DNA of 64,000 nucleotides from a virus, in IMG/VR virus record IMGVR_UViG_3300018915_000002; one strand, given 5' to 3'. The notes beneath the pieces are model-generated. The model saw only the letters and a program-made list of their open reading frames with translations, was not told the DNA's origin and ran no database searches. Position numbers and translations under genes: made by a program. Every line of letters starts with the position of its first letter. Position 1 is the first letter of the stretch. Positions 1,289-63,181 of the stretch are shown here, piece by piece.

Positions 1289-1393
1289 GAGGCGACACTC
1301 AACAAAACTGAGAGAAGCGATCGCACCTGCTCACGGAGTTCCGTGGTAAAGTGTGATCGCTTTTTCATTACAAAAACAATACGGCGAGGAACA

Positions 1394-1681
1394 ATGTATT
1401 TGTTTGTTCAGCTATTGGCAAGCTGGGATGATTACGAGAGGTTTTTAGAAATAAGGGGAGAAGAAAACCGATACCCCAATACTTCGTTTAATGACAATCA
1501 AATGGCATTATCGGGACTACTTGATGACTGGAGCAAACAAGTGAAAGATCATATCTACCTTCTTCTAAATGAAGGGAATTTGATTTCAGCAACAAGAATT
1601 GAAGATGATAATGAAGAATCTGAAGCTCCTGTCACCCTAGAAGAGTTGAAAACTATTTTAGAGACTGCCTCAGAAAACTAG
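1394..1681 (+). CDS. Hypothetical acidic protein
   Basis: ORF track 1343..1681; start moved to the ATG after the GAGGA SD-like sequence. Confidence 0.6.
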   Translation: MYLFVQLLASWDDYERFLEIRGEENRYPNTSFNDNQMALSGLLDDWSKQVKDHIYLLLNEGNLISATRIEDDNEESEAPVTLEELKTILETASEN

Positions 1682-1750
1682 AGCGAATAGAGATCGCATT
1701 CCAACATGGCTATTTTGTTACAATAGAATTGAAGTGACACCGTATAGCTT

Positions 1751-2002
1751 ATGTACAAACATCTTATTGCTTATCGACACGCAAACAACCAAGTCGAAGG
1801 CTTTGTTGGAATTGGATTCCTGAAAAGAAGCGCTGAACGAAACGCGATTGCGCGAGTAATTCAAAAAGTTCAATCCATTGACAATACCTACCAAGAGAGT
1901 CGTTTAATCACCTCAGAGTCTCAGGCTTCACCTGAAGAAATGGAGATTATTCGAGCAGACTGGCAAATCGACGAGAGACCAACATTTCGTCGTGACTATT
2001 AA
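1751..2002 (+). CDS. Hypothetical protein
   Basis: 83-aa ORF with a TGTTACAAT extended -10 about 30 nt upstream. Confidence 0.6.
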   Translation: MYKHLIAYRHANNQVEGFVGIGFLKRSAERNAIARVIQKVQSIDNTYQESRLITSESQASPEEMEIIRADWQIDERPTFRRDY

Positions 2003-2043
2003 GCGATCGCTCATGCCATTCAGTAACCACATCAAGCAAAACC

Positions 2044-2313
2044 ATGCAAACAATGAGTTTCAACGACCTGGAGCAAGGTACAAAAGTCAAGTTGACGGCA
2101 GATGCCACCAAGCATTACCAAGCTCTATCTAACTGGTACGAAATAACAGCTTACTACGACAAGTTTGGAACACTAGATCCACAAAGGCATTCTCATCCCT
2201 TCTTCGATCAAGAATACGAGAGTCGAGATGTCAGGATGTACCAGATCAGAGAAGATGGCGGTAAAAATGCAATCTTCATGATTTACGACTGGGATATTGA
2301 GAGCTTGCTGTAG
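2044..2313 (+). CDS. Hypothetical protein
   Basis: Preceded by the element-wide leader AAGCAAAACC-ATG; palindrome copy downstream. Confidence 0.7.
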   Translation: MQTMSFNDLEQGTKVKLTADATKHYQALSNWYEITAYYDKFGTLDPQRHSHPFFDQEYESRDVRMYQIREDGGKNAIFMIYDWDIESLL

Positions 2314-2468
2314 TTAACGCGATCGCACCCTGCTCACGGAACTCCGTGGGCAGGGTTAGTCATATATCCAAGGAGTAAGCAATTTCAGTTGTTACAGAAT
2401 TCCTGAGCATCATTTATCGTGAAACAAACAAAGGGAAGTCACACTCGTGGCGGAACCTTAACCACGCC

Positions 2469-3053
2469 ATGAGTGAGGGCTTAAATCTAGCGATAACTGC
2501 TCAGTTCCGATTTGAAGCAGATGACTTCAAGTACATGGCTGAACATTTTAAATTTGGGTACTGGGCGCGTCTGGACAACTCCGGCACTAGTAGAGGAGAA
2601 CACTTCTACAGTCTTGCCGTAGAAGTAGCGAATACGTCAGCCGCGATCGCCTTTGAGAAGTTCAAAGAGAGATCGCCTTTCATTTATTTTGGTAGACGAC
2701 TCGCTATCGGCTCAGAGTTTGTCTTTCCTTCTACCGAACAAGGTCAAATCTGGAAGGTTAATAGTTTTGCCCAAGATGGCAAAACTATTAATTGCGGTCA
2801 CTATGTATTGAAAGAAGGAGCAGAATATGGAGAAAAGATCTTGGTGGCGAGAAAATCGCTTACCAAGAAGGATCTAAAGGCTGAAAAAAGAGCCATTGAG
2901 CAGGCTGAGGCTGAACTCAGGAGACGATTAGAGGAAGAGGCACAAATAGCTCATGCCCTTAAAACAGGGCAACCACGATCATTTGATATGGTATTAGGCG
3001 GTGATTTGCCGCAGCCACAACCATTTGATGTAGTACTAGGTAATTCTCAGTAA
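2469..3053 (+). CDS. Hypothetical protein (phage/plasmid-type)
   Basis: 194-aa ORF with protein-like composition and a C-terminal coiled region. Confidence 0.7.
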   Translation: MSEGLNLAITAQFRFEADDFKYMAEHFKFGYWARLDNSGTSRGEHFYSLAVEVANTSAAIAFEKFKERSPFIYFGRRLAIGSEFVFPSTEQGQIWKVNSFAQDGKTINCGHYVLKEGAEYGEKILVARKSLTKKDLKAEKRAIEQAEAELRRRLEEEAQIAHALKTGQPRSFDMVLGGDLPQPQPFDVVLGNSQ

Positions 3054-3346
3054 TTACCGCACCAGCGATTGCCTACCATTGAGTAGTGCGATCGCTTTTT
3101 ACTATCTAAAACTATTTGACATGACGACAACAAGGCAGCTTTGGTATATGAGTTATTCTCGCGCAAGAAGTCTAAGGCGACAGGGTTTCAAGATCATCCC
3201 TCTTTCAGAAATCCCCTCGTATAAGTACTTTGATGAACTGGCTGCTTCCGTTTTGGAGATGTCTACTGAGTCATTCTCGACATTACCCCTCAAAGCGGCT
3301 GCCATTAGATAGTGCGATCTCTTCTTCTTATCCACATAGCAAAACC

Positions 3347-4778: not shown

Positions 4779-4904
4779 CGAAAGAAGGTGAGAGGAAAAT
4801 CGTGACAGGGGTGTTAAACTGAAAGCGTGAATTGCACCCACACCACGGAACTCCGTGCCACAAAAAGCCCTCCAGGCGCTGAACTTGGGGGCATTTTGCT
4901 TTTT

Positions 4905-5792: not shown

Positions 5793-7328
5793 TTAATCTT
5801 GACGGCCCGACCCTACGGGCGGGATGTCATGCCCTCTTCCAGGCTCTCGCATTGCTGCTACAGCATCCTGGATCTTAGGCACTTCGATTAAGGCTTGTGC
5901 AGCGACCCGCTCTACCTCTGGGCAACGTCCAAAGGAGGAAGGACGAATCCTTCCAGTTGCAGGTTTCATTTCCGTTGCGGTTCTCCAAGCCGCTTGCAAG
6001 CGCAGCTCTGCACTCTGCCAGTCATAAAGTAACTGACTCACTTGGAGAACGAACGTGTCGGGTTCTATATGTTTTGCAAGAAATGCCGAATATAAGTCTC
6101 TTTGAGCCACTATTCCACACTCACATCGGTGGATACGCTCAGAGAGCTTTTTCTTTTTGACCCGACCACACTGGCAAGTCTGCGATAGCTTTGTGCTGTA
6201 CGTCGGAATTTCTACTACTTGCAAGCCAGCTCTTTCAGCCTTGCTTTTTAGGTGAGAGACGAACATTCCTGGCGCACGCTTACCAACAGATCTGCCGAAT
6301 AACTTTTGGAATGCTTTGTAACTAAGTTTCTCTAATTTGATGACATTTCCGTTTCTAAGGATGTCATTGACTATCCCCCCATGCAAGCTCTTGCGATGAG
6401 CAGCCAACTTCCGCTCTAGATTAGCCTTGCAGTTCCTGATTTCGGTATAGCTTCTAGAGTTATCCCATGTCTTCTTCCCTCTCTTGACCGTACCATTGGC
6501 ATTGTAATTATTGAGATTGTTGGCTCTACGAGATCTATCCATCCGACGCTGGAGCCTGCGGATTTGCTTATCCTGGAACTCCAGTTCAGAAGCAAACTCT
6601 TTGAGTTGAGTAATCGAGTCTCCAACAATAGCTATAGTACTTGGTCCTAGATCTAGACCAATATCACCATTTCCAGCTCGGTTCTTTGGCTTAACAAAAG
6701 GCTTTCCTTCACAAGTTAGCTGGACATAGAACCTGTTGCGCCCTGACACTTTCCGCCTAACCAAGCGCACGAACTTAACCTTGGAGTTGAGTCCATGCAG
6801 AATGACTGGATCATGGGAAGTGATCAAGGCTTTTAGCTTAAGCCCACTCCACTCAACACCTTCTCCTTTCCAGCGGATACCACACTTATTGTCTTTCCCC
6901 TCCGCCGAGTCCATTTGATTCTTCCCCTTGAAGCGAACCTTCTTGGCTTTCCCGAATAGAACTTTCTCGGCTGCGTGATAAGCGCGAGTAGCTAGCTTCT
7001 GTGTGGTATTAGAGTCAATATGACTACCCAACCAAGATTGTCTTAAAGGGGTGCTATAGGAATGAATGGCGTATTCAGAAAAATCGTACCGTTCTCTTGC
7101 TCGTTTGAACAGAACTTTTCGTTCTGGATTGCTGGGCTTAAGGGAACGAGCTTTATTGAAGTCCTTGGATTGGCGAATGAGTCTAATCCGACGCATCGCT
7201 TCCCCAAGGCAGGCGTTGTATATCTGCCGTGCTGCTTCTAGTCGAGATAGCAAAACACCCTCATCGCGAGGAGATACCTTAAGAGGTAGCTCACAAACGA
7301 ATGAGGGTGTAGAGGACTTTTTAGCCAC
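5793..7328 (-). CDS. tnpB: RNA-guided endonuclease TnpB
   Basis: RuvC I (IGLDLG), RuvC II (IKLEKL), zinc finger (CQCG...CECG) and RuvC III (QRDLYSA). Confidence 0.93.
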   Translation of the reverse strand: MAKKSSTPSFVCELPLKVSPRDEGVLLSRLEAARQIYNACLGEAMRRIRLIRQSKDFNKARSLKPSNPERKVLFKRARERYDFSEYAIHSYSTPLRQSWLGSHIDSNTTQKLATRAYHAAEKVLFGKAKKVRFKGKNQMDSAEGKDNKCGIRWKGEGVEWSGLKLKALITSHDPVILHGLNSKVKFVRLVRRKVSGRNRFYVQLTCEGKPFVKPKNRAGNGDIGLDLGPSTIAIVGDSITQLKEFASELEFQDKQIRRLQRRMDRSRRANNLNNYNANGTVKRGKKTWDNSRSYTEIRNCKANLERKLAAHRKSLHGGIVNDILRNGNVIKLEKLSYKAFQKLFGRSVGKRAPGMFVSHLKSKAERAGLQVVEIPTYSTKLSQTCQCGRVKKKKLSERIHRCECGIVAQRDLYSAFLAKHIEPDTFVLQVSQLLYDWQSAELRLQAAWRTATEMKPATGRIRPSSFGRCPEVERVAAQALIEVPKIQDAVAAMREPGRGHDIPPVGSGRQD

Positions 7329-7680: not shown

Positions 7681-7748
7681 TCTAGCACCACGGAGATCCG
7701 TGACAGCAAAAAGCCGCTCAACCTTTAAATTGGTTGGGCGGCTTTGTT

Positions 7749-8345
7749 CTAGACATTCCAGATGTCAGGGCGTTTGTCCTTCATGCTGTAGAAGGAGTCA
7801 GGGGTAACAACCATAGAATCTACAATCTCTAGATTCATTAGGTTTCCGGCTTTGATTAAGTGCTTGGTGAGATTAATATCTTTCTCGCTCGGCTCAACCC
7901 AGTTACTTGGATGGTTGTGCGCGACGACTAGCCTGGTGGCATTGAGTGCGATCGCACCCCTCACCAGTTCCGCTACGTCAACCAATGTCTGAGTGGCAGT
8001 TCCCACGCACAGAACCTTGACCTTGAGTACGTGGTTCATGTGGTTGAGGTAGATGACCCAGAACACCTCCTGTCGGGGATATTCTGTTAAATCCAATAGA
8101 GCGTAGGCTTTGGCTGGTTTATCTACTATTTGTAGGTTGAGTGGGTACGTTGCGATTCGTCGTCCCAGCCGGATGGCTGTATAGAGCTTCTCTGCCGTGC
8201 GATTATCTACAAACTGAGCAAGTTGCTCTTGGGAATAGATTCTCAGCAGGTAAAAGGGATCTCCAATCTCTTGGAGTCCTTTTAGCAGCTTCTTGGTTGC
8301 TCTGGTGCCGATGATCGTTGTGATTAAGTTTTCGATGTCGTTCAT
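7749..8345 (-). CDS. radC: RadC-like JAB/MPN domain protein
   Basis: QEVFWVIYLN..N, GTATQTLVD, and the AHNHPS...PSEKD...VDSMVV JAB motif; AAGCAAAACC leader. Confidence 0.92.
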   Translation of the reverse strand: MNDIENLITTIIGTRATKKLLKGLQEIGDPFYLLRIYSQEQLAQFVDNRTAEKLYTAIRLGRRIATYPLNLQIVDKPAKAYALLDLTEYPRQEVFWVIYLNHMNHVLKVKVLCVGTATQTLVDVAELVRGAIALNATRLVVAHNHPSNWVEPSEKDINLTKHLIKAGNLMNLEIVDSMVVTPDSFYSMKDKRPDIWNV

Positions 8346-9224: not shown

Positions 9225-9314
9225 TTTTGTATTACTTTAGACCACGGAACTCCGTGACAGCAAAATCGCCCACCCTCTAAGAGGATGAGCGATCGCATAT
9301 TCTACTTGAAATGA

Positions 9315-15079: not shown

Positions 15080-15652
15080 ATGATATTTTCCTTGGACGAT
15101 ATGCCGCCAGAAGATCTGGAAAAGCTCAAGGCAGCTTGTCTTGCGGCTGCTCGTCAGCCAACAATTGTCGTTGAACCCAAGATTAATTCGTTTGGCGCAT
15201 ACCAGTTGATCGAGGCTTTACGCGATCGCATTCAAACATCAAACGATCCAGCCCTAGCAGATCAGGCGTTCAGTCTCCTTGAGGAATTGGAGGCTAATTT
15301 TCGCGCCACGGAACTCCGTGAGGAGCAACTAGATTTAACCGATGAACAGGCGGTTCAGCGAACAAAAGATTCTCGGCGATTGGCGTACCTGGCTGCCGTC
15401 GAGATTTACGAGAAGCTGAGTCTTACTCGCCCTGGTGTTCGCTCCGATGAGAAGGCAATCTTCTTCACGCCTGCATATCTGAAGTGGGCGCTGACTCAGA
15501 TCTGCGTTTACGCTGGATATTGGGAAGAGGATAAGTTGCACCGCTGGCTTGGTTGGTGCCAAGCGATTAGCAACTGCTTGGGACTAACCACTATCAATGA
15601 GGAACGCGATCGCATCCGCACCCTCAAAGCAGAACTTAAAGAAAAATCATGA
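15080..15652 (+). CDS. Hypothetical protein
   Basis: 190 aa; carries a palindrome copy in its coding sequence (ATELR) at 15307. Confidence 0.7.
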   Translation: MIFSLDDMPPEDLEKLKAACLAAARQPTIVVEPKINSFGAYQLIEALRDRIQTSNDPALADQAFSLLEELEANFRATELREEQLDLTDEQAVQRTKDSRRLAYLAAVEIYEKLSLTRPGVRSDEKAIFFTPAYLKWALTQICVYAGYWEEDKLHRWLGWCQAISNCLGLTTINEERDRIRTLKAELKEKS

Positions 15653-18031: not shown

Positions 18032-18129
18032 ATAGACTGAGGATCACTTGCTTATATCTAAAATCCCCTCGCCCAACAGAGGGAAAGGGGATAAGAGGTA
18101 CTCACCACGGACTTCCGTGGTGAGTGGAA

Positions 18130-19023
18130 TTACTCCGAATCAGGGAGTAGCGATCGCGCTACATTGGGCCAGTCAACGCACTGGATACCAGCTAGTACTA
18201 ACTGGGAATTTACATCGCGTGAATTCACAGAGTAGGGTAGCTTTTTGATGAACCAGTCGTGCAACTGATCTGCCAATGAGTCGATATCAGCCTTTTTTTC
18301 CAGGTGCTGCTTAATAAACCTCGCAACAACAGGAAGCTCTCCGGGTTCCATAAGGCGGAAGTCCGAAGGCAAGGCGTGAAACCCATTGGATTCGATAAAG
18401 TGAACAACAGTCCACGTTAGGGAGTTGGTATAGTATTCGTACATTACGCTGTCCCATTTGGGTTCGTGCAGCCAGTGTCCGACATCAAGTGCTTGGGCAA
18501 TTAAGATCCAGTCCACATATCCGAGTGTCTCCCGCAGAAAGTTATACCAGATGGTGTCGCGGGTTTCTGGGATTTTCTCGTCGAACCAGCTTTCTAGGGC
18601 ATCCGCAAGGTTAACGCGGTAACCCTGCCGTTCTTCTCTTTCTACTCCGGGAACTAGATGTTCCCGTTTAAAAGCAATTACATCCTTCAACAGCTTGTTG
18701 CGAGAGTCTGTGATCAGATCTTGCATCAAGCTGGTGATGCGCCTGGTCGAGTTAATTACGGCTTTGCTTTTCCAGGCGTACTCGAAGCGATCGCCTAGGA
18801 TGAAATTTAGATCAACCTTGTTGTAGTTTTGCTTTACCGTGAGGTTGACATCCAGTTGGTATGGGTCAGTACCGAAGTTGGTATCCAAGTCGCATGAGTT
18901 AGCGCCCGTATACCATGAGCCGTATTGATTTATTTCATAGTTATGGACAACGACTCGGTATCCATCCAGTGTTTGGGTGCCAGGAATGATGTCTTCCTTG
19001 ACAAATATGTTTTGTTTCTTCAT
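18130..19023 (-). CDS. Hypothetical protein with two internal VDW-ending helical repeats
   Basis: Start moved to 19023 (GGAGCAAAACC-ATG). Repeats ...WFDEKIP...YVDWILIAQAL and ...WFIKKLP...CVDWPNVARSL. Confidence 0.7.
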   Translation of the reverse strand: MKKQNIFVKEDIIPGTQTLDGYRVVVHNYEINQYGSWYTGANSCDLDTNFGTDPYQLDVNLTVKQNYNKVDLNFILGDRFEYAWKSKAVINSTRRITSLMQDLITDSRNKLLKDVIAFKREHLVPGVEREERQGYRVNLADALESWFDEKIPETRDTIWYNFLRETLGYVDWILIAQALDVGHWLHEPKWDSVMYEYYTNSLTWTVVHFIESNGFHALPSDFRLMEPGELPVVARFIKQHLEKKADIDSLADQLHDWFIKKLPYSVNSRDVNSQLVLAGIQCVDWPNVARSLLPDSE

Positions 19024-19082
19024 GGTTTTGCTCCTTAGGCTAAATGTAGTGTCCGCCACGGAGATCCGTGACGGACGAGGTA

Positions 19083-19487
19083 TTAGTCTTCGTCTTCTGA
19101 ATCACTCTCTAAGTTGCACCAGTCAACATTAGGTGTTGCTGGTATAGATAAAATCTCTTCGACGATCTCATCCACATCTGCACCTGTCGGAGGCTCGAAG
19201 CCGCGAAATATGAATTTGAGGTCTTCCTCTTCCCACTCATCGTAGTTTGACGAGTAGTTGTCCTGCCATGCCCCAACGACCTCCTTGAGGAGGGCTTTTT
19301 CTACCTCGTTCAACGGAAGCCCTGCGCCAATCTTCAACGCCATTTCAATGAAATCGTCGGAGTTTGGAGACCAGTTGCGTATGCGTATGTTTGAGCGCGG
19401 AATATCCTCCCAAGTATTCTCAGGGAGATATTGGTAATACCCCAGAATACTTGTCAGGATATTGAGCTTTCTCGTATTTAGGTTCAT
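19083..19487 (-). CDS. Hypothetical acidic protein
   Basis: 134 aa; AAGCAAAAACC leader. Confidence 0.7.
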   Translation of the reverse strand: MNLNTRKLNILTSILGYYQYLPENTWEDIPRSNIRIRNWSPNSDDFIEMALKIGAGLPLNEVEKALLKEVVGAWQDNYSSNYDEWEEEDLKFIFRGFEPPTGADVDEIVEEILSIPATPNVDWCNLESDSEDED

Positions 19488-19502
19488 GGTTTTTGCTTCT
19501 TG

Positions 19503-19799
19503 TTAATACTTGAAGTTGCGTCTTTCTAGTTCAGGGTAGTCCTTGGGCGCACCTGGATATTCAACGTAATAGCTACCTTCCTTGTGCCTCCACTCGGTAA
19601 GGCGAACTTTAAATTCCTTGAGAATCTTCGGTTGAACTCCTATCTCAGCAAGAGTGTGCCAGCCGTTGTTGTTATTGAGGAATACGGGCTTTGGATCACT
19701 GTTTGCCCATAGTGTTTCTATTGGACCATGTTCATTTACAGGGTAAATGAGGTAGAGGGCAGTATTGTTGGTGATCAGCCGCTGGAAGTATCCTTTCAT
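19503..19799 (-). CDS. Hypothetical protein
   Basis: 98 aa; GGAGCAAAATC leader. Confidence 0.7.
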   Translation of the reverse strand: MKGYFQRLITNNTALYLIYPVNEHGPIETLWANSDPKPVFLNNNNGWHTLAEIGVQPKILKEFKVRLTEWRHKEGSYYVEYPGAPKDYPELERRNFKY

Positions 19800-19814
19800 G
19801 ATTTTGCTCCTTTG

Positions 19815-20153
19815 TTAGATTAATGGAAGGAAGTGTTGAGCGATTTTATTCCACCCATCATCGGGCATTGTTTGAATCGCTGAGCGAAGGAAAGTTCCGA
19901 ATAAGAACTCTATTTCAGTTACTTCATCAGGATTCTCTGCCTGAGAAGGGTCTGAATGCGTGACTTCGTAATTATCTAGTTCCGCTAAGAACCATCCTTC
20001 GTACTGTCCTGCTACATAGCCATAATCGTGATCTTCACTGTTCCTTGCTATCTCAATGAATTTCTCCCTAAGAAGCGCACTCTTTGTTGCGTATAGGATG
20101 ACAGCATCTGCGGTATCTGCTGAAGGCAGCATAGTTAACTCCTTATAATTCAC
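19815..20153 (-). CDS. Hypothetical protein
   Basis: 112 aa; TGTTATAAT promoter just upstream. Confidence 0.6.
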   Translation of the reverse strand: MNYKELTMLPSADTADAVILYATKSALLREKFIEIARNSEDHDYGYVAGQYEGWFLAELDNYEVTHSDPSQAENPDEVTEIEFLFGTFLRSAIQTMPDDGWNKIAQHFLPLI

Positions 20154-21680: not shown

Positions 21681-21755
21681 TGAGGTTGATGTGACCAAAA
21701 AAGAAGCCCACGGAACTCCGTGAGCTTCTTTTTCTAGGAACCAAGCTTTTTGTTG

Positions 21756-22379: not shown

Positions 22380-22550
22380 GATTTTGCTTTTAGTATAGTA
22401 TACACACATTGTAACAAAACTACAAACCCCTTGGGGTAAGCGTTTCAAGGCTTTGTGGTCATCGGTAATTGAGCCAATAGTCGAACTGGAGAATAGCAAA
22501 AAGCAGCCCACGGAGTTCCGTGAGCTGCTTCCTTTAGCTAGGCGTTGCTT

Positions 22551-23545: not shown

Positions 23546-23668
23546 TAAAAATTCCTTGCGTTTGAAATTGTAGACTTTGGCTTGAACCTAATACTATTGT
23601 AACATTTGCACACAAAAACGCCCTGCTAACCCGCAGATTAGCAGAGCGCTGGTCACGGAGTTCCGTGG

Positions 23669-25015: not shown

Positions 25016-25052
25016 GGTTTTGCTTTGTGCTTATTTTTTGAGTGTGTTTGAC

Positions 25053-25094
25053 ACACTACCCTCATTATAACAATTGTTATAATGAGGGTAGTGT
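25053..25094. repeat. Perfect 42-bp palindrome containing back-to-back TGTTATAAT promoters
   Basis: acactaccctcattataacaa|ttgttataatgagggtagtgt, no spacer, between divergent genes. Confidence 0.95.
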
Positions 25095-25110
25095 AATCAC
25101 AGAGGTTTTC

Positions 25111-26864: not shown

Positions 26865-26965
26865 GGTTTTGCTTTAATTAACCTTCTGTACTCATTGTAA
26901 CAAAGCACTAAAAACAAAAATGCACCACAGATCTCCGTGGTGCATTCACTGGGTTATTGATTCAA

Positions 26966-28487: not shown

Positions 28488-28582
28488 GGTTTTGCTCGAT
28501 TAATAATGTGCAGCACTGTGGCTGTATTGCTATTGTAACAAATCTACAAAAGATAACGTACCACGGAACTCCGTGGCGAGGT

Positions 28583-29724: not shown

Positions 29725-30063
29725 GGTTAAGGGTTTGTGTTTTCGAGAAATTCTAACAGACGTTAAGATCAACAAAATGAGTTTTTCTGCCAAATGACAA
29801 TTATGCTTATGACTGCAACGATTAGAGGCGGACACGAAATTCGTAAACCAGATACGTCTGGGAAAAACGTGATCCCTCAGGGACCAACTACTCCAAGAAC
29901 TCTCCCAGTCAGGACTGCCCCGCGCCCGAAAGATCCACCAACTCTCGACAACCCTGTGTGAACCTGGCTCCCAAAGCAAATCAAAAGCCCCCTAGATCAT
30001 TGATCTAGGGGGCTTTTGTGTCACGGAAGTCCGTGGTGGACGACTATTTCTTTAGCATTGCAC

Positions 30064-30828: not shown

Positions 30829-30912
30829 GGTTTTGCATTAACAACAGTTCATTCTTTAATTGTAACAAAACTACAAACAAAAACCGCCACGGAAGTCCGT
30901 GACGGAGTGGAA

Positions 30913-32862: not shown

Positions 32863-32954
32863 TTTGGGTTCCTATAAATAAAAAAGTACGCCACGGAGTT
32901 CCGTGGCGCGAGGATCATCTGTGAGCGATCACTATTCGTGCCTTATAGACATTT

Positions 32955-34760: not shown

Positions 34761-35894
34761 TTAGCCCTTTTTAGGCTTGGTTTTCAGCAAGTCGCTGTGA
34801 GCATTTTCCAATTCAACTTCCTCTTTCGAGAAAATCTTAACTGGAATCCCCAGCTTGAACTTCAAGTAAATAGCGAATCGCTTCACACTTTCGCTATCCG
34901 TTAATACCTTGTACCCCTTCTCACCTGGAGAAAGGATACGCCCGTGCCAGTCGGGATTGGATTTTCTCCAATCAATTTCCTTCAAGGGCTTGAAAAAGTC
35001 TAATAACTCTTCAGGAGACTTGGCTTCGAGAGACTTACCAACAGAAGCGATCGCATCCAAGAACACGGCTTGACCACACATATAGTCTTCCCGCACCTCT
35101 TTTGGTTCGATCTGCTTAATTGCCACTTCAGTCCACTGGGGAATGGTGACAATTAGGGCGTTCCAGAAGGCAAGGCAGAATGCCTTGTCCTCGTCATGAG
35201 ATTTTCCAGGACGGATTTGCTCGTGGACTTTGTAGATCCACTTGAGAGTTAGGAGTTTTGGGCTGGTTTTACTTACCGTCCCTCGCTCGAACTCCGTCCA
35301 GAGGTGAAGAAACTCAACCTCCTTCACGACTTGCATCGTGAAGTTGTTAGAGGGGCTGTCCTTGTAGACGATCTGGAGACTACTCTCCAGAGTCTTAGTG
35401 GTAGTGGTAATCGCCGCGAAGGCTTTCTGGCTCCGTCTTAGCCCAGTGTCGATTATTAACTGGACGGCGATCATCTCGTCACGGAGTTCCGTGAGTGCGA
35501 TCGCCTGAGCGATTTCCAGTAACTTTTCCGTTGCCAAGCGACGGTGTTGACCGTCGATAAGTATCAACTTCGCGTCGGCAGCGATGTGGAGCATTCCACA
35601 TCTGAAGAAATCCTGGTTCGGAACCTCAAACTCTACTTCGCCATCAATGCTGGCGATGAGAGGCGGGACGACATGATCTTTAAAATCCCCTACCACGTAG
35701 TCAACAATTTCTTGTACATGTTTTGGGCGCGGAGTTCGCTGTGATCTTTCTTCTACCGGAAGCTCAAGATAGTCGAGATTAAAGGTCTGGATGATTTCTG
35801 CGTACTTGAACCAGCAGATGTATGTCTCCATACCTGCTTGAATGCCACGAGCCGCAGGGAAACTGCGACGTGGATCGTCTCGGCGCAATGCCAT
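34761..35894 (-). CDS. dndB: DGQHR-domain protein, DndB family
   Basis: FPAARGIQAG, SQRTPRPKHVQEIVDY, LIDGQHR and the C-terminal IDWRKSNPDWHGR. Confidence 0.8.
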   Translation of the reverse strand: MALRRDDPRRSFPAARGIQAGMETYICWFKYAEIIQTFNLDYLELPVEERSQRTPRPKHVQEIVDYVVGDFKDHVVPPLIASIDGEVEFEVPNQDFFRCGMLHIAADAKLILIDGQHRRLATEKLLEIAQAIALTELRDEMIAVQLIIDTGLRRSQKAFAAITTTTKTLESSLQIVYKDSPSNNFTMQVVKEVEFLHLWTEFERGTVSKTSPKLLTLKWIYKVHEQIRPGKSHDEDKAFCLAFWNALIVTIPQWTEVAIKQIEPKEVREDYMCGQAVFLDAIASVGKSLEAKSPEELLDFFKPLKEIDWRKSNPDWHGRILSPGEKGYKVLTDSESVKRFAIYLKFKLGIPVKIFSKEEVELENAHSDLLKTKPKKG

Positions 35895-37260: not shown

Positions 37261-37618
37261 GAAGAAACTTCCAACGGGTCCCATCCGCATTGAACCTCCA
37301 GCCACAAAAAAGGATGACCCGACGACAGTCATCCCGACACCAGACGAATTACATCCAAAATTAGCACAACCTTCCCAGAAAGTATCCATGCGTCTGTCTG
37401 AAGAAGCCGCCTCTGTTTTGAAGCGATTCCGACTGGACGAAGGAATCCCTTATGAGATTCTGGTTGAGATCATGATTCTCAACTTCCATCAACTGCCGGA
37501 ACGCATCCGTAAAGCCTACCTAGAGCAAGGCAAGGAATTGCGAACCCAGCGGTTGATCGCAGGGCAGGAGAAGGCGCTAGAGACGATGAAGTCGAAGGCG
37601 AAGAAAGGCTCAGTTTAG
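37253..37618 (+). CDS. Small ParA partner, possibly ribbon-helix-helix
   Basis: Disordered Pro-rich N-terminus followed by QKVSMRLSEEAASVLKRF (beta-strand then helix). Position downstream of parA fits a type Ib partner. Confidence 0.5.
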   Translation: MTEKKLPTGPIRIEPPATKKDDPTTVIPTPDELHPKLAQPSQKVSMRLSEEAASVLKRFRLDEGIPYEILVEIMILNFHQLPERIRKAYLEQGKELRTQRLIAGQEKALETMKSKAKKGSV

Positions 37619-38165: not shown

Positions 38166-38179
38166 CACGGAGTTCCGTG

Positions 38180-39454: not shown

Positions 39455-39718
39455 GGATGATTTTGACGTTTGGAAAACAAAATGCTCCGAACTTCGGTTC
39501 GGGATTCAGGGAGAAATTTACCCTGATTTAGAAGCTTGGGAGAAAGCTATTCAAGTCTATGACAGAAACTAGTACTGGGTCTACGAATGGATGATGGTTG
39601 GCAACCCTACCCCACCTGCATGGTTTTTTAAGTTCAGAGAAAAGTACTTGCAGGCACTTTCAGGCACAAAAAAAGCCACCACGGACTTCCGTGGTGGCTA
39701 AATTCAAGCCGAGCCTAA

Positions 39719-43865: not shown

Positions 43866-43979
43866 TTTAAGCCCCTATCACGGAGTTCCGTGGTAGGGGC
43901 TTTGCCTATGGTGCCTATGTTATAACACTGTTACAATATAAGAAGAAGTTAAATTACTTTAAGCATTTAAAGCAAAGCC

Positions 43980-45683: not shown

Positions 45684-45808
45684 ATCCAGTTCCCATCACG
45701 GAGTTCCGTGGTGGGAATTTTGCTTTATTCTGTTATCACATTTGTTATAATCAAAAAAGGACTACAAAGTCCTAGTAAACTTTAAGGCAAAGCCATAGCA
45801 AGGTAACC

Positions 45809-47425
45809 ATGCAAATTCAAGCAAAAGTCAGCGAGAATACCTTATCTAAAGTGACTCGCTTGTTCAACGCAAGTTTGAATGACATCTTGAACGAGTTGCT
45901 CCAAAACGAACGAAGGGCTGGAGCAACACAGGTGAAAGTGGAGGTCAACGAAGACTACTTAAGCATTACAGACGACGGGGTTGGCATCAACGACCCTAGC
46001 ATCCTGCTTACCTTGGGAAATAGCGATTGGGAAGAAGAAACCCAGGAGCGAGAAGACCCAGCAGGAATGGGAATATTTAGCCTAGCTAACCGCACGGCTG
46101 AAGTGCGATCGCGTGATTGGTTTGTGCATCTTACTCCCGCTCATTTCCGGGGCGAGTTGCCTGCAACTGTTAAACGTACACAGTCACAGATTGGAACTAC
46201 AGTCATCTTTCGACTAGAAGAAGGTGAGGCTACGAAGCTCAACAAAATACTTAGCCACGCAGCTAAATATTACCCTTTACCCGTAGAGTTCAACGGAACA
46301 CGAGTAGAGCAAAAGGACTTCCTTGAGGGCGCGGCATATATTGAGCAATGGCGCGGACTCAAAATGGGGGTTGTTGCGGATTACTACTCTTGTTTGGAAG
46401 TGATAAATTTCCATGGCATCACCCTGTCCCACGACCTTCCTCGTATCGAGCAGGTGGGTCAGTATAGTAGTCGATTGGGAGTCAAAATAGATGTAGTTAA
46501 CTGCCCAGACTTAAAGCTAGTACTACCAGCTCGGAAGGAATTGGTGCAAAATCCGTTTCTTTTGGAGCTGTACGATGAAGTGCGGCGGGTTATTTACCGC
46601 TACCTCAGGACGTTAGAGTTTCACCAACTTTCGCATGTCCTGTGGGAGGAAGCGTCATCCCTAGGAGTAACGCTACCAGAAGCCAAGCCTGCACTACTGG
46701 AATATAAGCCATCAGTTGCAGATCATCACGCAGTTAACTGGGCTGAAGAAATTCCAGTTATGGACAACAATACCTTGATTATTGATACTGAGGATCTCAA
46801 TTCAGATCAACAACAGGTGTTCTGGCGAGAGTTTGGGCGAGCCAATTTGCCCTATACGCCAGTTCAACGGCAGCCAGGGTACAAGGGTTATACCTGGTAT
46901 GACCAACTCCCGATGCTGTCGGAGATTGAGTTTGAGATTGTGATCGATGACAAACAGTTCACCCCCGAACAACCTGAAGTAGAGTACGGCAGCAACAAAG
47001 TAGAAGTCGATGATATTGTCATCACGGCTACTATAAATCAACCAGACGGGAGCAGTACGCAGCAAGTTTTTTCAACCGACCTGCACCTGTACCAGGTCGA
47101 AGATAGTTACTCTATGGAAGAGGTAACTATCTTCCTCAAACGTGGACACACGGTAAAGGTGGACGAACTGGCTGATTTACTAAAAGCGTCGTATTTCTTC
47201 CCGTCCGACGACGGTGAGGCTGATTCCTATGACACTCAGGAAGAGGGTTTTGAGGAATTTGCTCATTTGAGGGCAACTGAAATACTGCTCTCTAGCGAAG
47301 AAGCTTTTTTAGAGAATTTTCGCTCACGGCTCAATGAAATCCGCTGGATGCTTCCAGAAGGAGCAAGAGCAGAGATCAGTATGTCTCAGGAAGGCATAAC
47401 CATCCAAATCCATCAAGGCGAATAA
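45809..47425 (+). CDS. GHKL (HATPase_c/Hsp90-like) ATPase-domain protein
   Basis: N-box ELLQNERRAGA, G1 ITDDGVGI and G2 AGMGIFSLA. Confidence 0.85.
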   Translation: MQIQAKVSENTLSKVTRLFNASLNDILNELLQNERRAGATQVKVEVNEDYLSITDDGVGINDPSILLTLGNSDWEEETQEREDPAGMGIFSLANRTAEVRSRDWFVHLTPAHFRGELPATVKRTQSQIGTTVIFRLEEGEATKLNKILSHAAKYYPLPVEFNGTRVEQKDFLEGAAYIEQWRGLKMGVVADYYSCLEVINFHGITLSHDLPRIEQVGQYSSRLGVKIDVVNCPDLKLVLPARKELVQNPFLLELYDEVRRVIYRYLRTLEFHQLSHVLWEEASSLGVTLPEAKPALLEYKPSVADHHAVNWAEEIPVMDNNTLIIDTEDLNSDQQQVFWREFGRANLPYTPVQRQPGYKGYTWYDQLPMLSEIEFEIVIDDKQFTPEQPEVEYGSNKVEVDDIVITATINQPDGSSTQQVFSTDLHLYQVEDSYSMEEVTIFLKRGHTVKVDELADLLKASYFFPSDDGEADSYDTQEEGFEEFAHLRATEILLSSEEAFLENFRSRLNEIRWMLPEGARAEISMSQEGITIQIHQGE

Positions 47426-47505: not shown

Positions 47506-47578
47506 TCCAGTCTCGTCACGGACTTCCGTGACGAGATTTTTGCTTTATCATCATCTCAGTTATATTAAAGGCAAAAGC

Positions 47579-50614: not shown

Positions 50615-50733
50615 CCACGGAGTTCCGTGACACAAATAAACCCCCTAGATCAAGTTTGATCTAGGGGGTTTATTCGTGTTTATAGTTAGCACACATAGTG
50701 TGATAACATAGATATAGTTACTAAAGCAAAATC

Positions 50734-51267: not shown

Positions 51268-51344
51268 TCACGGAGATTCGTGACACAAAAAACCCGTAGA
51301 TCAAATTTGATCTACGGGTTTTTTGTTTTGGGAGTGTGATCGCC

Positions 51345-52175: not shown

Positions 52176-52320
52176 GTTTATTTTTGTAAAACTCAAATTA
52201 ATTGTAACATAATACCCAAATTCAATCCGCCACGGAACTCCGTGGTACGCGAAAAGGCAGACTCATCAAATCGATGAATCTGCCTTTTAATCTGCTAGTT
52301 GGTAGCTAGCAGCATAGCGT

Positions 52321-55160: not shown

Positions 55161-56495
55161 GAGATTCGCTGGGAAGACTGCGTACCCTCGTGGTCGCAGA
55201 TGAAAGGCGAGTCAATTGCGGTCGGTCAATCCCGACGCAATTGACTTTCCTGCCACGGCTTACCTAAAATCAAAAAAGTAGATAAATTGGTGAGTGATGG
55301 CAAATAAAGGTTATCGATTTCGGCTGTATCCAACCCCTGAGCAAGAGAAATATCTGGCTCGGTGTTTTGGGTGCAGCCGCTTTGTGTATAACCATTTTTT
55401 GCGGTTAATCACCGATGCTTACGCCGAATCCAAGAAGCACCTAAAGTATACTGACACAGCTAAGTTGCTCACTCTCCTGAAGAAAGATGAGCAATATTCT
55501 TGGCTAACAGAAGTCAACAGTCAGTCCCTACAGCAGACGCTTAAAGATTTAGAGTCTGCATTTAACCGCTTTTTCAAAAAGATAGGAAGTTTCCCTGTAT
55601 TTAAGAAGAGGCGCAATCGTCAATCATTTCGCATTCCTCAGCATTGGAGCATTACTCCCGATGCAATGCTAAAACTTCCCAAGATGCTCCCTATTAAAAT
55701 GGTGCAGCATCGGGAAATGGAAGGAACACCAAGCAGCGTTACTATCAGCAAAACACCTACGGGCAAGTATTACGCTTCCATTTTGGTGGAATATGACCAG
55801 AGAGAAGCTCCGCTTAATGGTGGAAAGACTGGCGCTGACCTGGGGCTAAAAGACTTTTTGATTACCAGCGAGGGTAAAAAGTATCCAAATCCCAGATTCT
55901 ACAAACGTGCATTAAAGCGTTTAAAGCGGCTACAACGCTCTTTATCTCGTAAAGTCAAAGGCTCTAACAACCGTAATAAGCAACGGTTACTTGTTGCCAG
56001 AGCGCACGAGAAAGTAGCCAATCAACGGTTAGATATGCAACACAAACTCTCTCTACAGTTAACGTGCGAAAACCAAGTTGTTGCTGTGGAAGATTTGCAT
56101 ATCAAGGGGATGGTTAAAAACCATAAGCTAGCCCAAGCTATTAGCGATGCTAGCTGGGGGCAATTCTTGACAATGCTGGAGTACAAAGGGAACCTCTATG
56201 GTTGTGAAATTCGTAAGCTAGACAGGTTCTTCCCTAGTTCTAAGCGCTGCTCAAAGTGTGGATACATCCATGAGCATCTGACGCTAGATGTCAGAGAGTG
56301 GATTTGTCCAGAATGCGGCACCACTCATGACCGTGATGTCAACGCCGCAACTAACATCCTCATCTTTTCAGATCCACAAATACGGCAGGGATTGCCGGAA
56401 TCTACGCCCAAAGAGCCTGTTGAAAGACAGGGATACCAAGGGGGTTACTCCTTGGGCTTGGGAAGCTGCGTGGGCTTGTCCCCGCAGTAATTCAC
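55161..56495 (+). mobile_element. IS200/IS605-family (IS1341-like) tnpB-only element
   Basis: Left end follows TTTAT, with hairpins ctgcg...cgcag and gtcaattgcg...cgcaattgac. Right-end hairpin ctgcgtgggcttgtccccgcag is followed by TTCAC. No tnpA. Confidence 0.8.
55294..56490 (+). CDS. tnpB: RNA-guided endonuclease TnpB
   Basis: N-terminal HTH (YRFRLYPTPEQ...FGCSRFVYN), RuvC GADLGLK, VEDLHIKGM, zinc finger CSKCG...CPECG and DRDVNAATNI. Confidence 0.95.
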   Translation: MMANKGYRFRLYPTPEQEKYLARCFGCSRFVYNHFLRLITDAYAESKKHLKYTDTAKLLTLLKKDEQYSWLTEVNSQSLQQTLKDLESAFNRFFKKIGSFPVFKKRRNRQSFRIPQHWSITPDAMLKLPKMLPIKMVQHREMEGTPSSVTISKTPTGKYYASILVEYDQREAPLNGGKTGADLGLKDFLITSEGKKYPNPRFYKRALKRLKRLQRSLSRKVKGSNNRNKQRLLVARAHEKVANQRLDMQHKLSLQLTCENQVVAVEDLHIKGMVKNHKLAQAISDASWGQFLTMLEYKGNLYGCEIRKLDRFFPSSKRCSKCGYIHEHLTLDVREWICPECGTTHDRDVNAATNILIFSDPQIRQGLPESTPKEPVERQGYQGGYSLGLGSCVGLSPQ

Positions 56496-56557
56496 TCTCT
56501 AGTTTCCATATTTATTCTCTTTGCCACGGAACTCCGTGGGCGACACCTATACAGGCA

Positions 56558-59766: not shown

Positions 59767-59793
59767 ATTGGTCACGGAGTTCCGTGGTAGTGA

Positions 59794-60321
59794 TTAATGC
59801 AGTTCTCGCAAGATTTCTCGCCACATCATTTTATCCTTCTGGTCAAATAAGGTTTTGGCAAAATCATTGAGGAGAGTGTTGAGATCACGATCATCACCAC
59901 TCGCTTCGGCGATCGCTTTTTGGATTACTGCGATCGCTGCCATAGTCGGTATCGGATCTTCTGTTAACTGCTTACTTTCGGCTAAGGCACGAACTTGGAG
60001 ATCGTAATCGCCGGACTTGAGTGCCTCATAGAGCTTATCTGTCGTCTGTTCAAATACTCCCTTCCCTTCATCGAGCCGATTTCTCACCTGCTCCTTAGCT
60101 GAGGCTTGTCCAGGAGATCTGAGGATACGAGCCGCTTGCTCTTGGGTATCACTATCGAGTCCGTGATTCTTCTTGATAATGTCACGACGGGCAGTTGCCG
60201 TTTTGAGCTTTTGGGCGGTTGTAGGAGCAAATTGCCCTAGCTTATCGCGTTCATACGTGCGTTCTAGCTGGAGAAAGGTGGCAATGAGTTGAGACTTGAG
60301 GAGGGCAATTGCAGTTTGCAT
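59794..60321 (-). CDS. Leader-family protein D (short leader, helical body)
   Basis: SQL..FLQL..YERDKLGQFAP shares the RDxxGxFA motif. Confidence 0.55.
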   Translation of the reverse strand: MQTAIALLKSQLIATFLQLERTYERDKLGQFAPTTAQKLKTATARRDIIKKNHGLDSDTQEQAARILRSPGQASAKEQVRNRLDEGKGVFEQTTDKLYEALKSGDYDLQVRALAESKQLTEDPIPTMAAIAVIQKAIAEASGDDRDLNTLLNDFAKTLFDQKDKMMWREILRELH

Positions 60322-61080: not shown

Positions 61081-61377
61081 ATGAATACTAGAAGATCGCA
61101 AGAGGATTACGACAAGTTAGTTGCAGGTATAGACTGGGGGAAAATCAACAAACAATTAAATACCCACTACAGCTTGCCCGACAACGGAGATGAGTTGCGT
61201 GTAGAGAAGTCAGAGCGCGAATACTACTACAACATGATTTGCTGGAATCCAGTCACTAAAGCAGAAAATCGACAAGAATTCTTTGTTGATTCTGACGGGA
61301 ATTTCTGCTCACTAAACTGTGCATGGGTTCCGGCAGCTTTGCGTTTTGCTGGATTGATCAAAGAAAAGAGTGACTGA
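61081..61377 (+). CDS. Hypothetical protein
   Basis: 98-aa ORF in a co-oriented run. Confidence 0.6.
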   Translation: MNTRRSQEDYDKLVAGIDWGKINKQLNTHYSLPDNGDELRVEKSEREYYYNMICWNPVTKAENRQEFFVDSDGNFCSLNCAWVPAALRFAGLIKEKSD

Positions 61378-61419
61378 ACACAGATCAACTTAGACCCATA
61401 ATACTTCGTTGCAATTCAA

Positions 61420-61815
61420 ATGAACACAGAAAATAAAGTCAAAGCTCCCCTTAATAAGGGGGACTACAACAAATTCTGGTATGCCAATTGCGGCTTCTGC
61501 TCAAAGAGTCCACATCGAAACGGTACTTGCGAGATCCAAAATCAGTTGTGTTATGCAAATGCTTCCCTATACGGAGTGAACGATGAATGCCCTCCCAGTC
61601 CAGAGCTTTCTTTTCTCTTGGGAGAAGGTTTTATCCCACAGGATATTGCTAATCGACTAGGTTTGGACGAATCAAGCGTTCACATCCCTGAAGACTGCCC
61701 TGAACAGGAAGTTGTGTTCCAAGGACAGCATGAACGCGAGGTTGGAATGACGGCAGAGAAGTTAGAGGCAATGGCAGATGAGTATGAACGCAAAAGAGGA
61801 AGAGATCCAATATGA
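61420..61815 (+). CDS. Hypothetical Cys-rich protein
   Basis: CGFC...C...C...C pattern; ATGA-coupled to the next gene. Confidence 0.6.
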   Translation: MNTENKVKAPLNKGDYNKFWYANCGFCSKSPHRNGTCEIQNQLCYANASLYGVNDECPPSPELSFLLGEGFIPQDIANRLGLDESSVHIPEDCPEQEVVFQGQHEREVGMTAEKLEAMADEYERKRGRDPI

Positions 61816-62003
61816 AAGTTAAGGTCAAATTTTGGGTTGAACTTGGAAGCGCCACTGTCGAGCAATTTGTTGATGTCGAGCTTCCAGAAAACTACACTGA
61901 GCAAGACATGAGGACAGAGTACGAAAGCTGGGTCTGGGATCAAATAACAGGTGCATGGGAAGTTCTGGAAGAAAAAACTCAAGGGAAGAGCGATCGCACA
62001 TGA
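61812..62003 (+). CDS. Small acidic phage-type protein
   Basis: 63 aa, coupled to both neighbours. Confidence 0.6.
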   Translation: MKVKVKFWVELGSATVEQFVDVELPENYTEQDMRTEYESWVWDQITGAWEVLEEKTQGKSDRT

Positions 62004-62413
62004 CCGAGCAAAAAGAATTAGATTTCCTCTCTTCACTCGAAGTCGGGGACGAAGTAGCCTTTGGCAAGCAAGTCTACAGAGGGACTGAGTTGGAACCCCA
62101 TTTCCAATTCACTACCGTAGCGAAAATCACCCCATCGGGTTTAATCAAGACGAAGTGCGGGAAAACTTTCAACCCAGACGGACGTATACGAGGGGAGAAG
62201 TATTGCGCCTTAGTATCTCCCGAAGTTGCCAGAGCAGCACAACAAGAGTACAAGCAGGAACAACAAGCCAAGAAAGATGAGGCGCGTAAAGAACTTCATC
62301 AGTTGGTTGATCAAATAGAAAACTTGTATTACCTGGAGCGCTACGTCCGCACCATCAAATCAGAGTTGCAAAACCTTAAGGTAGTGCGATCAAGTGATGG
62401 AAGAATCTATTAA
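62000..62413 (+). CDS. Hypothetical phage-type protein
   Basis: Start moved to MTEQKEL (ATGA overlap); LEVGDEV...VAKITPSGLI...FNPDG pattern. Confidence 0.65.
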   Translation: MTEQKELDFLSSLEVGDEVAFGKQVYRGTELEPHFQFTTVAKITPSGLIKTKCGKTFNPDGRIRGEKYCALVSPEVARAAQQEYKQEQQAKKDEARKELHQLVDQIENLYYLERYVRTIKSELQNLKVVRSSDGRIY

Positions 62414-62648
62414 AACAGAGCAACTGATGCGCTTCCTGAAGCTGGAAGAAGAGCTTCAGCGCTATCAGAATGGGAATAGCAGGATAGAGTACCAAGTTCT
62501 AGTTAGGTTTCTGCATGGCACCCATGAAGACAGAGAACGCGACATCACAAGGCTTGAGAGTTGGCTCAACAGGTCATGGAGAACTGGGAGAAAACCCAGT
62601 GAAATTCCCTATTCGGAATTGGTCAAGAGGAGGAAGTCCCAGAGGTAA
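62394..62648 (+). CDS. Hypothetical protein
   Basis: 84-aa ORF. Confidence 0.5.
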   Translation: MMEESIKTEQLMRFLKLEEELQRYQNGNSRIEYQVLVRFLHGTHEDRERDITRLESWLNRSWRTGRKPSEIPYSELVKRRKSQR

Positions 62649-62695
62649 AATATCGTTATCGTTTAGCACAGAAATCCGTAACAGAGGTAAAGCCA

Positions 62696-63064
62696 ATGAA
62701 CCAGCCTGCCGCAGAGGATGCAAGGTCGTTTTCCACCAAAGGAGCAACTCAGTCACTTATCAATTCCATTAGAAATGGTGCTGAACTTCTTCATGTCTCA
62801 GGAATTTGCACTAATTTATATGGCTTCTGGCTAACCGAGGGAATCCCAGAAGAAGACCTTCAGCCAGTGGTTAAGTTTTTAGTTCGCATGAACGAATTAG
62901 AACAAATTGGGGTTCGGGCAAAACAAGACGATACGCTCATGGAGATGGATAAAGAAAAGAAATTTCTTGAAAAAGAGTCGAAGCTCACTGTCTATCAGGC
63001 GATCGGTCATCTAGTTAAACTTGTGCAGCCACTCACAGAGACAGTGGGATTGACTAGCAATTAA
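62696..63064 (+). CDS. Hypothetical protein
   Basis: 122 aa with a GAGG SD; palindrome 4 nt after the stop. Confidence 0.6.
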   Translation: MNQPAAEDARSFSTKGATQSLINSIRNGAELLHVSGICTNLYGFWLTEGIPEEDLQPVVKFLVRMNELEQIGVRAKQDDTLMEMDKEKKFLEKESKLTVYQAIGHLVKLVQPLTETVGLTSN

Positions 63065-63181
63065 CCGCCACGGAGTTCCGTGGTCAACAAAAACAAAAAA
63101 ACAATCCAAAAGGGGTAGACTAAGGTCAATCTTAAAAAAGGTCTTCAGCCGCTCACGTAACCCGTGGGCGGCTTTTTGCGT

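Follow-up and report, generated by a model that had tools for sequence, protein, structure and literature searches.

In this study we analysed a 64,000-nucleotide stretch of the virus record IMGVR_UViG_3300018915_000002 (the whole stretch is called the window below), which carries 28 dispersed copies of a 14-base palindrome, CACGGANNTCCGTG. We propose, with a probability of roughly 45%, that this palindrome is the core of a lineage-specific RNA 3'-end stem-loop that is read by a putative factor. Once transcribed, the CACGG/CCGUG core would fold directly 3' of the stop codon; at about half of the copies it would be lengthened by locus-specific pairs and a U-run into an intrinsic terminator, and at the remaining copies it would stand beside a separate large terminator or alone. 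The stem-loop would end or insulate many single-gene transcription units, each with its own TGTTACAAT promoter, and the exact core sequence would be read by a lineage-specific factor acting on RNA.

A pattern search recovered 26 perfect copies and two with one mismatch (26926 and 51269), whereas 100 dinucleotide-preserving shuffles of the window held 0.05 copies on average and one at most, in agreement with an earlier note on this DNA, which had described the same sites as far above chance with gaps of about 0.65 to 6 kb (measured here as 653 to 6,064 nt). All 12 arm bases are invariant, and the 4-nt loop always has A at position 1 and T at position 4 (the A6/T9 pair; 28 of 28 copies); the flanks of the copies are unrelated to one another. 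The central dinucleotide is GT/AC in 19 copies, CT/AG in five and GA/TC in four and, read on the sense strand, AC in ten, GT in nine, CT in three and AG, TC and GA in two each, so that both orientations relative to transcription occur, as the earlier note had also stated. This centre (positions 7-8 of the 14-mer) combines one strong and one weak base in 28 of 28 copies, and two weak bases (WW), two strong bases (SS) or CA/TG never occur, a rule that neither an RNA nor a DNA reading explains. Immediately outside the arms, a pyrimidine (Y) at -1 and a purine (R) at +14 act as independent half-site positions, and the combination C·A is not depleted there. Replication-type polarity on the + strand was not found, GT and AC centres being interleaved along the window. 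Isolated half-sites outside the palindromes are not enriched (15 were counted, whereas hexamers of equal composition have a median of 23), so the unit is the whole dyad, and the idea of a Chi-like or monomer-bound half-site was rejected on the same count. A scan of the window found no Rfam family, and a literature search on the motif found it in none of the papers covered.

The copies lie at gene ends. Although about 85-90% of the window is coding, 26 of the 28 copies are intergenic; only 15307 and 35480 are true coding copies, and the other overlaps with open reading frames (ORFs) concern spurious short ORFs or mis-set start codons. The upstream stop codon is at most 45 nt away in 17 of the 25 measured intergenic copies and at most 13 nt away in 12 of them, with a median distance much shorter than that to the next start codon, which is typically about 75 nt off. 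Counted from the gene list, none of eight divergent gaps carries a copy, as against four of about eight convergent gaps. Given the short stop distances and the empty divergent gaps, the dyad is a feature of gene ends rather than of promoters. None of the copies overlaps a promoter core, and the consensus promoter TGTTANAAT lies 18-49 nt downstream of 7-9 of the 28 copies, the rest having no consensus promoter nearby. The placement past stop codons, the terminator apexes at 43879, 45697, 47517, 39680 and 21709 and the two coding copies had all been pointed out in the earlier note, and they hold.

In the transcript, CACGG pairs with CCGUG as a stem of 5 bp around a loop of 4 nt. Folding each site on the sense strand separated three classes, in which the dyad forms the apex of a longer hairpin with extra pairs that vary between loci and, in most cases, a T-run behind it (class A, 13 copies), a bare hairpin of 5-7 pairs lying 1-9 nt to either side of a separate strong, often bidirectional terminator (class B, eight copies), or a stand-alone hairpin (class C, five copies), the two further copies being those in coding sequence. 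Taking a G+C-rich hairpin 3' of a stop codon with a direct sense-strand U-run as the criterion for an intrinsic terminator, roughly 11-13 of the 28 sites qualify; the others have 5-7 pairs and lack a U-run, and some of them stand next to a terminator of their own. Of the strongest terminator-like sites between 18 and 58 kb, about half include the dyad. Where at least four Watson-Crick pairs lengthen the stem, there are 14 non-Watson-Crick positions (nine in the window and five in its relatives, described below), and each of them is G·U when read on the sense strand; A·C, as which a G·U of the antisense strand would appear, never occurs (p = 6e-5). The half-changed cores behave in the same way, with three of three being sense-strand G·U, namely the two one-mismatch copies of the window and a relative's CATAG-ATAT-CTGTG. 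That all non-Watson-Crick stem positions are sense-strand G·U shows selection on the extended copies as hairpins in RNA.

Relatives of the window were reached via a clamp-like protein and include contigs of 156, 220 and 245 kb; these are colinear with everything in the window after about 13.4 kb, and their proteins are 45-84% identical to its own. The stem differs between four lineages: the window itself (lineage 1) has CACGG-ANNT-CCGTG and no other form; lineage 2 (L216, L218, L224 and L230) has tCACGG-N4-CCGTGa with loops that are mostly TTCT/AGAA, together with CACAG..CTGTG and CATAG..CTGTG; lineage 3 (L227 and L228) has CACAG-N4-CTGTG and one CCCAG..CTGGG; and lineage 4 (L219 and L220) has CCCAG-TATC/GATA/TATA-CTGGG and one CACAG..CTGTG. 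The hairpins of the relatives have as their centre a 4-nt loop that is asymmetric, and their stem changes by compensatory pairs (CACGG/CCGTG, CACAG/CTGTG, CCCAG/CTGGG). Orthologous small hairpins stand 3' of the clamp-like gene across lineages; at the end of the methyltransferase-clamp gene the hairpin (window 50616, L216 14860, L227 6335, L219 8247) is always found beside a large terminator with a GATC apex, and at the conserved terminator sites window 52231, L219 11612 and L227 8215 the type of small hairpin is switched within near-identical flanks. Further orthologous hairpin sites are those at 32892, 39680, 28562, 23654 and 30888. In a covariation alignment of 47 copies (30 distinct sequences, four lineages), pairing of the five core pairs is complete (100% of cells), with double-sided changes of both the G-C↔A-U and the A-U↔C-G kind, and the covariation score of 0.334 compares with 0.190 in shuffles, none of 500 of which scored as high. 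Conservation in related phages, which the earlier note had proposed as a check, is found for the small hairpins at orthologous gene ends, but their stem has changed by compensatory pairs. A fragment of a fifth lineage (L213), whose DNA is about 35% diverged, carries the exact window-type 14-mer; the sequence is therefore maintained by selection, and a recent burst does not account for it.

About 26 loci share the same 12 bases, while related phage lineages have another stem in these places, and a pure structural hairpin would hold neither the same 12 bases nor a lineage consensus at orthologous loci; we therefore infer a sequence-specific reader, which would act on RNA. Several observations weigh against a stem-loop read as RNA. 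The loop invariably ends in A and T, which keeps the dyad symmetry without an obvious RNA reason, and the centre, occurring in both sense-strand orientations yet always as strong plus weak, fits a duplex-level constraint better, as do Y(-1) and R(+14), which act as independent half-site positions with no depletion of C·A. The copies at 7689, 9243 and 52231 lie beyond a terminator U-run and would therefore be missing from most terminated transcripts, two copies lie within coding sequence, and a candidate RNA-binding protein was not found.

Much of this would be accommodated by a lattice of operators on double-stranded DNA (dsDNA), in which a dimeric phage protein binds a 14-16-bp palindrome (half-site YCACGGA) as a roadblock, insulator or nucleoid-organising site and hairpins merely form around it; we regard this as a live rival, somewhat less probable than the RNA reading. 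The invariance of all arm bases, including the A6/T9 pair (symmetric in duplex terms alone), the random orientation, the base-pair rule of the centre and the half-site preferences at -1 and +14 fit such a site, as do the copies without stem extension, beyond U-runs or in genes, and a lineage-specific consensus that includes the centre fits co-evolution with a reader. The sense-strand asymmetry of all 14 stem positions and all three half-changed cores stands against it, however, since a DNA-only site would not give such asymmetry. Stem types are also mixed within single genomes (for example CACAG with CCCAG, or CACGG with CACAG and CATAG), no copy sits on a promoter core or in the eight divergent promoter regions, and the window holds no helix-turn-helix (HTH) or ParB-type candidate, only a weak ribbon-helix-helix (RHH) match (E = 0.009) at 37253-37618. 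Homologues of a relative's winged-HTH protein, which was considered as a shared candidate reader, were found neither in the window nor in any other lineage examined. The earlier note had favoured a dimeric protein on dsDNA over RNA; with 13 copies in longer hairpins and the G·U bias this is not established, and its argument for symmetric recognition is weakened by the asymmetric loops and compensatory stems of the relatives. Its element-specific network with random orientation stands, whereas its preference for DNA over RNA is weakened, and of the other readings that it offered a dispersed centromere is unlikely and recombination sites are not supported.

Operators dispersed through temperate phage genomes have precedents in the conserved inverted repeats (CIRs) of phiC31 and in the stoperators of Cluster A mycobacteriophages. 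The latter are asymmetric, oriented with transcription and have a proposed role in termination or silencing (PMC4351075). Stoperators and the sites described here have in common tens of copies of a short site placed in the narrow gaps between genes of a probably temperate phage; however, the window has a perfect dyad with sense-strand AC and GT centres in nearly equal number instead of an asymmetric oriented site, and its extended stems, unlike stoperators, show RNA-level selection. Invariant palindromes dispersed over the genome have been described for a few phages. In form, the nearest published case are the repeats of Cluster O mycobacteriophages, 17-bp sites (TGTTCGG-NNN-CCGAACA) in 34 copies without an orientation rule or a known function (PMC4351075). 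These share with the palindrome invariant inverted arms, a variable centre, tens of dispersed phage copies and the absence of an orientation rule, a likeness of form only; they differ in having an unrelated sequence, 7-bp arms, a 3-bp centre and another host. About one third of the Cluster O sites are inside genes, many near 5' ends, in contrast to the 26 of 28 intergenic copies at 3' ends found here, half of which are terminator apexes. Short stem-loops (5-6 bp with a 4-nt loop) or a palindrome rule mark the 3' ends of gene sets in histone mRNAs, which are bound there by the stem-loop-binding protein (SLBP), and in the 'hairpin rule' of Mimivirus. Being eukaryotic or giant-virus systems, they are a functional analogy that implies no homology.

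In layout, the nearest case are the PeSL cassettes of T4-type phages, in which a stem-loop terminator and a strong sigma-70-like promoter are repeated and flank ORFans in plastic regions (PMC2839356, PMC4122927). By analogy, the copies could be parts of composite terminator-promoter cassettes whose shared sequence is a recombination linker that shuffles ORFan cassettes between related phages, which we judge improbable. At part of its sites the window has repeated intergenic stem-loop/promoter modules flanking ORFans in a large phage genome, in the uniform form of hairpin, TGTTACAAT extended -10 and AAGCAAAAYCATG leader; the region is ORFan-rich and highly mosaic against the relative, and several copies are at the edges of lineage-specific cassettes, e.g., the EndoU cassette, the ParA operon and the D12 methyltransferase. 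Dyads are nevertheless not enriched where a conserved gene borders a non-conserved one (12 of 37 such boundaries have a copy, against 9 of 32 others; Fisher p = 0.8), and the recombination sites proposed in the earlier note are not supported either. Furthermore, 14 bp within unrelated flanks are too short for homologous exchange, most sites keep their position between lineages, and a consensus promoter is within 50 nt of the dyad in the minority of 7-9 copies given above. PeSL stem-loops, moreover, are not one invariant 14-mer, the dyad is often without a promoter, and the boundary counts gave no hint that dyads mediate shuffling. When contigs from four biocrust runs were aligned to the window, they proved to represent the same strain and diverged relatives; some of these alignments end beside dyads, as expected for conserved islands at gene boundaries, and were not counted as evidence.

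It is very improbable that the palindrome is a very small mobile or self-spreading repeat (REP/RAYT-, MITE- or SDR-like) that inserts into intergenic hairpins. The window lineage has 14 dyads against about six in the relative over the syntenic 33 kb, TnpB genes are present and identical cores sit within unrelated flanks; yet a Pfam scan of the window's ORFs found no Y1 (RAYT or TnpA) transposase, the copies have no conserved flanks, target duplications or terminal motifs, orthologous sites are stable with cores that change by point and compensatory mutation, and host copies of the TnpB element lack the motif. The copy in the DndB gene has the same length as the relative's orthologous codons, so it arose by substitution and not by insertion. 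REP elements are 35-40 nt long, imperfect, chromosomal and tied to RAYT transposases via a 5' GTAG. Like REPs and intrinsic terminators in general, the sites here are 3'-end palindromes in both orientations that can fold in mRNA and may terminate transcription or protect the 3' end, but the element is a perfect phage-borne 14-mer without a RAYT.

A target of the element's own DNA modification or restriction-type enzyme (a methyltransferase or Dnd-like sulfur modification) is hardly to be expected either: the element has several methyltransferases, a DndB-family gene, a PAPS-reductase-like gene and an SMC-like ATPase, and GAAC/GTTC occurs in the major GT/AC variant and in most lineage-2 copies, but nine of the 28 copies in the window lack it, as do lineages 3 and 4, enzyme targets would not keep to gene ends, and a 12-base specificity is atypical of such enzymes. 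A parS/ParB centromere or KorB-type operator is not supported, as Pfam scans of the window ORFs found no ParB family and the sites are dispersed, and the dispersed centromere raised in the earlier note is unlikely given that a relative keeps the hairpins though the ParA operon is missing at the syntenic place.

The palindrome belongs to the element and not to its host. The window matches part of a 242,772-bp biocrust metagenome contig and is also present in biocrust metagenome runs; it holds 65 HIP1 (GCGATCGC) sites and is therefore cyanobacterial DNA. One TnpB (398 aa) has copies of 87-91% identity in genomes of Allocoleopsis, Coleofasciculaceae and 'Aphanothece CMT', which we take as likely hosts because of this identity, the same HIP1 density and the same G+C, and the identity suggests host-phage exchange. 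In five likely-host genomes (38.6 Mb in total, 5-9 Mb each) we counted 0, 0, 3, 0 and 0 copies, one of the three being on a 3.8-kb contig, itself a piece of yet another related phage. The motif was matched in 11 of 301 genomes of the same order (one site each in ten of them and three in G003), and a reversed-pattern control was about equally frequent. With 0-3 copies per likely-host genome and chance level in the 301 genomes, a host or generic HIP1-like repeat was rejected, the equal host density that the earlier note had named as a refutation is not observed, and the dedicated element-wide network that the note had postulated is supported. The bare 14-mer gave only scattered single chance matches in a genome-contig collection, patterns of dyad plus promoter gave only chance-level matches in genome and metagenome collections, the plasmid collection and IMG/VR yielded no relatives, and protein-pattern scans with the DndB and the clamp alignment yielded no matches.

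Most window proteins have no Pfam or PHROG match, and those that do are an integrase, ParA, RadC, SNase, EndoU, HNH, methyltransferases, DndB, the SMC-like ATPase, clamp-like proteins and two TnpB; integrase and ParA agree with the phage-like replicon that had been supposed earlier. Beside the syntenic block, an ORF in the relatives reaches at least 7,312 aa and includes a phage tape-measure domain (PF10145), and the window's last ORF (63164-64000, running off the end) is homologous to the start of this giant ORF (L221:1-7983; L222:1-6955). If it is a true tape measure it is extraordinarily long; in another assembly it is split into 736 aa and more than 6,532 aa. The replicon is a phage-like element of about 243 kb, possibly temperate or plasmid-like, and judged by the tape-measure ORF of its syntenic relative it looks like a jumbo cyanophage or phage-plasmid.

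The 28 copies are listed in Table 1.

Table 1 Copies of the palindrome in the window, with hairpin class and surroundings.
Position	Strand	Centre	Class	Surroundings	Relatives
1332..1345	+	GT	A	apex of long interrupted stem, then T-run; 43 nt past stop at 1288	
2335..2348	+	AC	A	8 extra pairs, sense-strand U·G at junction; 21 nt past stop	
4844..4857	+	AC	B	short hairpin, then separate terminator-like hairpin	
7689..7702	-		B	directly beyond terminator T-run of gene 7749-8345	
9243..9256	-		B	beyond terminator T-run; 18 nt upstream of TGTTACAAT promoter at 9224	
15307..15320	+		coding	ATELR (RATELRE context) in ORF 15080-15652; near junction of non-conserved N-terminal and conserved C-terminal half	
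18106..18119	-		A	perfect 11-bp stem without T-run; 10 nt past stop	
19057..19070	-		A	11-pair stem with sense-strand U·G; 12 nt past stop	
21709..21722	.		A	apex of 17-pair bidirectional terminator; convergent gap	
22509..22522	-		A	terminator apex with 3 sense-strand G·U pairs and T-run	
23654..23667	-		B	1 nt past stop, then separate terminator 23650-23617	
26926..26939	-		A	one mismatch (sense-strand G·U); terminator apex; 23 nt upstream of promoter at 26902	
28562..28575	-		C	7-pair hairpin; 7 nt past stop; 21 nt upstream of promoter 28540	orthologue L224:15920
30022..30035	-		B	3 nt from large GATC-apex bidirectional terminator 29982-30018	
30888..30901	-		A	9 pairs and T-run; 11 nt past stop of SMC-like gene; 20 nt upstream of promoter 30867	orthologue is CATAG-ATAT-CTGTG
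32892..32905	-		A	9 pairs and T-run	orthologue L216:2492
35480..35493	-		coding	LTELR in DndB-family gene	orthologous codons (LLELH) without copy
38166..38179	-		C	abuts stop codon of methyltransferase gene 38180-39454	
39680..39693	-		A	11-bp stem and T-run	orthologue L216:6477
43879..43892	+		A	terminator apex; 13 nt past stop of clamp-like gene	
45697..45710	+		A	terminator apex; 13 nt past stop of second clamp-like gene	
47517..47530	+		A	terminator apex 3' of gene 45809-47425	
50616..50629	+		B	1 nt past stop of methyltransferase-clamp fusion; 5 nt before large terminator 50635-50674	orthologous small hairpins in three other lineages
51269..51282	+		B	one mismatch (+ strand G·U); 1 nt past stop; 2 nt before large terminator 51285-51326; convergent gap	
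52231..52244	-		B	beyond terminator; 21 nt upstream of promoter 52209	orthologous sites in L219 and L227 are CCCAG-N4-CTGGG, flanks conserved on both sides
56525..56538	.		C	convergent gap; 34 nt past TnpB stop	
59773..59786	-		C	7 nt past stop of 59794-60321; edge of EndoU cassette	relative lacks the cassette
63069..63082	+		C	4 nt past stop of 62696-63064; upstream of giant tape-measure-like gene	

The ORF with the coding copy at 15307 is fusion-like, in that only its C-terminal ~95 aa match a 97-aa gene of the relative, its N-terminal half is unrelated to the relative's 109-aa gene, and the dyad lies about 50 nt before the junction. A second repeat family consists of large perfect bidirectional terminators with the apex (T)AGATC-N3-4-GATCT(A), i.e., two GATC sites; besides the three window members named in Table 1 (29982-30018, 50635-50674 and 51285-51326) it occurs at L216:14881-14918 and L219:8266-8297. 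Each of these terminators is 1-6 nt from a small dyad hairpin, and the pairing is kept in three further lineages. More multi-copy terminator families are marked by CCTCTAAGAGGGTGGGCGA and GCTCATCCCTTACGGGATGGGC (window 9257-9300, ~9850 and ~10530; 33664-33700 and 34712-34750), and the GCTCATCCCTTACGGGATGGGC family is also found at the orthologous place in the relative.

The layout of the window is very regular, with an extended -10 promoter, a leader and a terminator for nearly each gene or small operon. The promoter TGTTACAAT has 22 exact copies, or 31 as TGTTANAAT (e.g., at 9224, 28540, 30867, 43929, 47820 and 52209), and about 25-40 nt downstream of it follows the leader AAGCAAAAYC-ATG (16 exact and 27 relaxed copies), which has no classical Shine-Dalgarno sequence. 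The same promoter is kept in all related lineages, including L216, L219, L224 and L227, and is absent from about 100 kb of likely-host DNA. Together, the uniform promoter and leader recall the start-associated sequences of Cluster K mycobacteriophages. At 25053-25094, between the genes 24344-25015 (-) and 25042-26064 (+), a perfect 42-bp palindrome holds two divergent TGTTATAAT promoters.

With regard to the other genes, the TnpB genes of the window, at 5793-7328 and 55294-56490, are without TnpA, and RRXRR-domain (PF14239) genes of 372-386 aa are found elsewhere in a relative (L216:7208-8368 and 18929-20047). The ParA operon (35906-38168) consists of ParA followed by ORFs of 156, 121 and 113 aa, of which the 121-aa ORF has a weak RHH/CopG match; in the 245-kb relative that lacks it, a 101-aa gene lies at the syntenic place between DndB and the methyltransferase. 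Two stretches of the SMC-like ATPase gene (31129-31221 and 32350-32460) reach a summed contig depth of up to about 275 in the four biocrust runs, compared with about 5 elsewhere, and probably represent a motif common to many other organisms or elements.

Taken further than the single window, one short dyad might mark most gene ends in a jumbo cyanophage family via a dedicated, co-evolving factor, which would be either SLBP-like on RNA 3' ends or a genome-wide symmetric system of roadblock-termination, its specificity having been switched from CACGG to CACAG and then to CCCAG by compensatory changes; so broad a claim we regard as rather unlikely. Stem switching and RNA-level asymmetry have not been reported for the closest described case, the Cluster O repeats (PMC4351075), and the comparative pattern makes both the existence of a phage-encoded reader and the choice between RNA and DNA reading testable. 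In addition, the analysis helps to annotate a previously undescribed family of phage-like elements of about 243 kb in biocrust cyanobacteria, whose unusually uniform promoters, leaders and terminators could serve as genetic parts for filamentous cyanobacteria.

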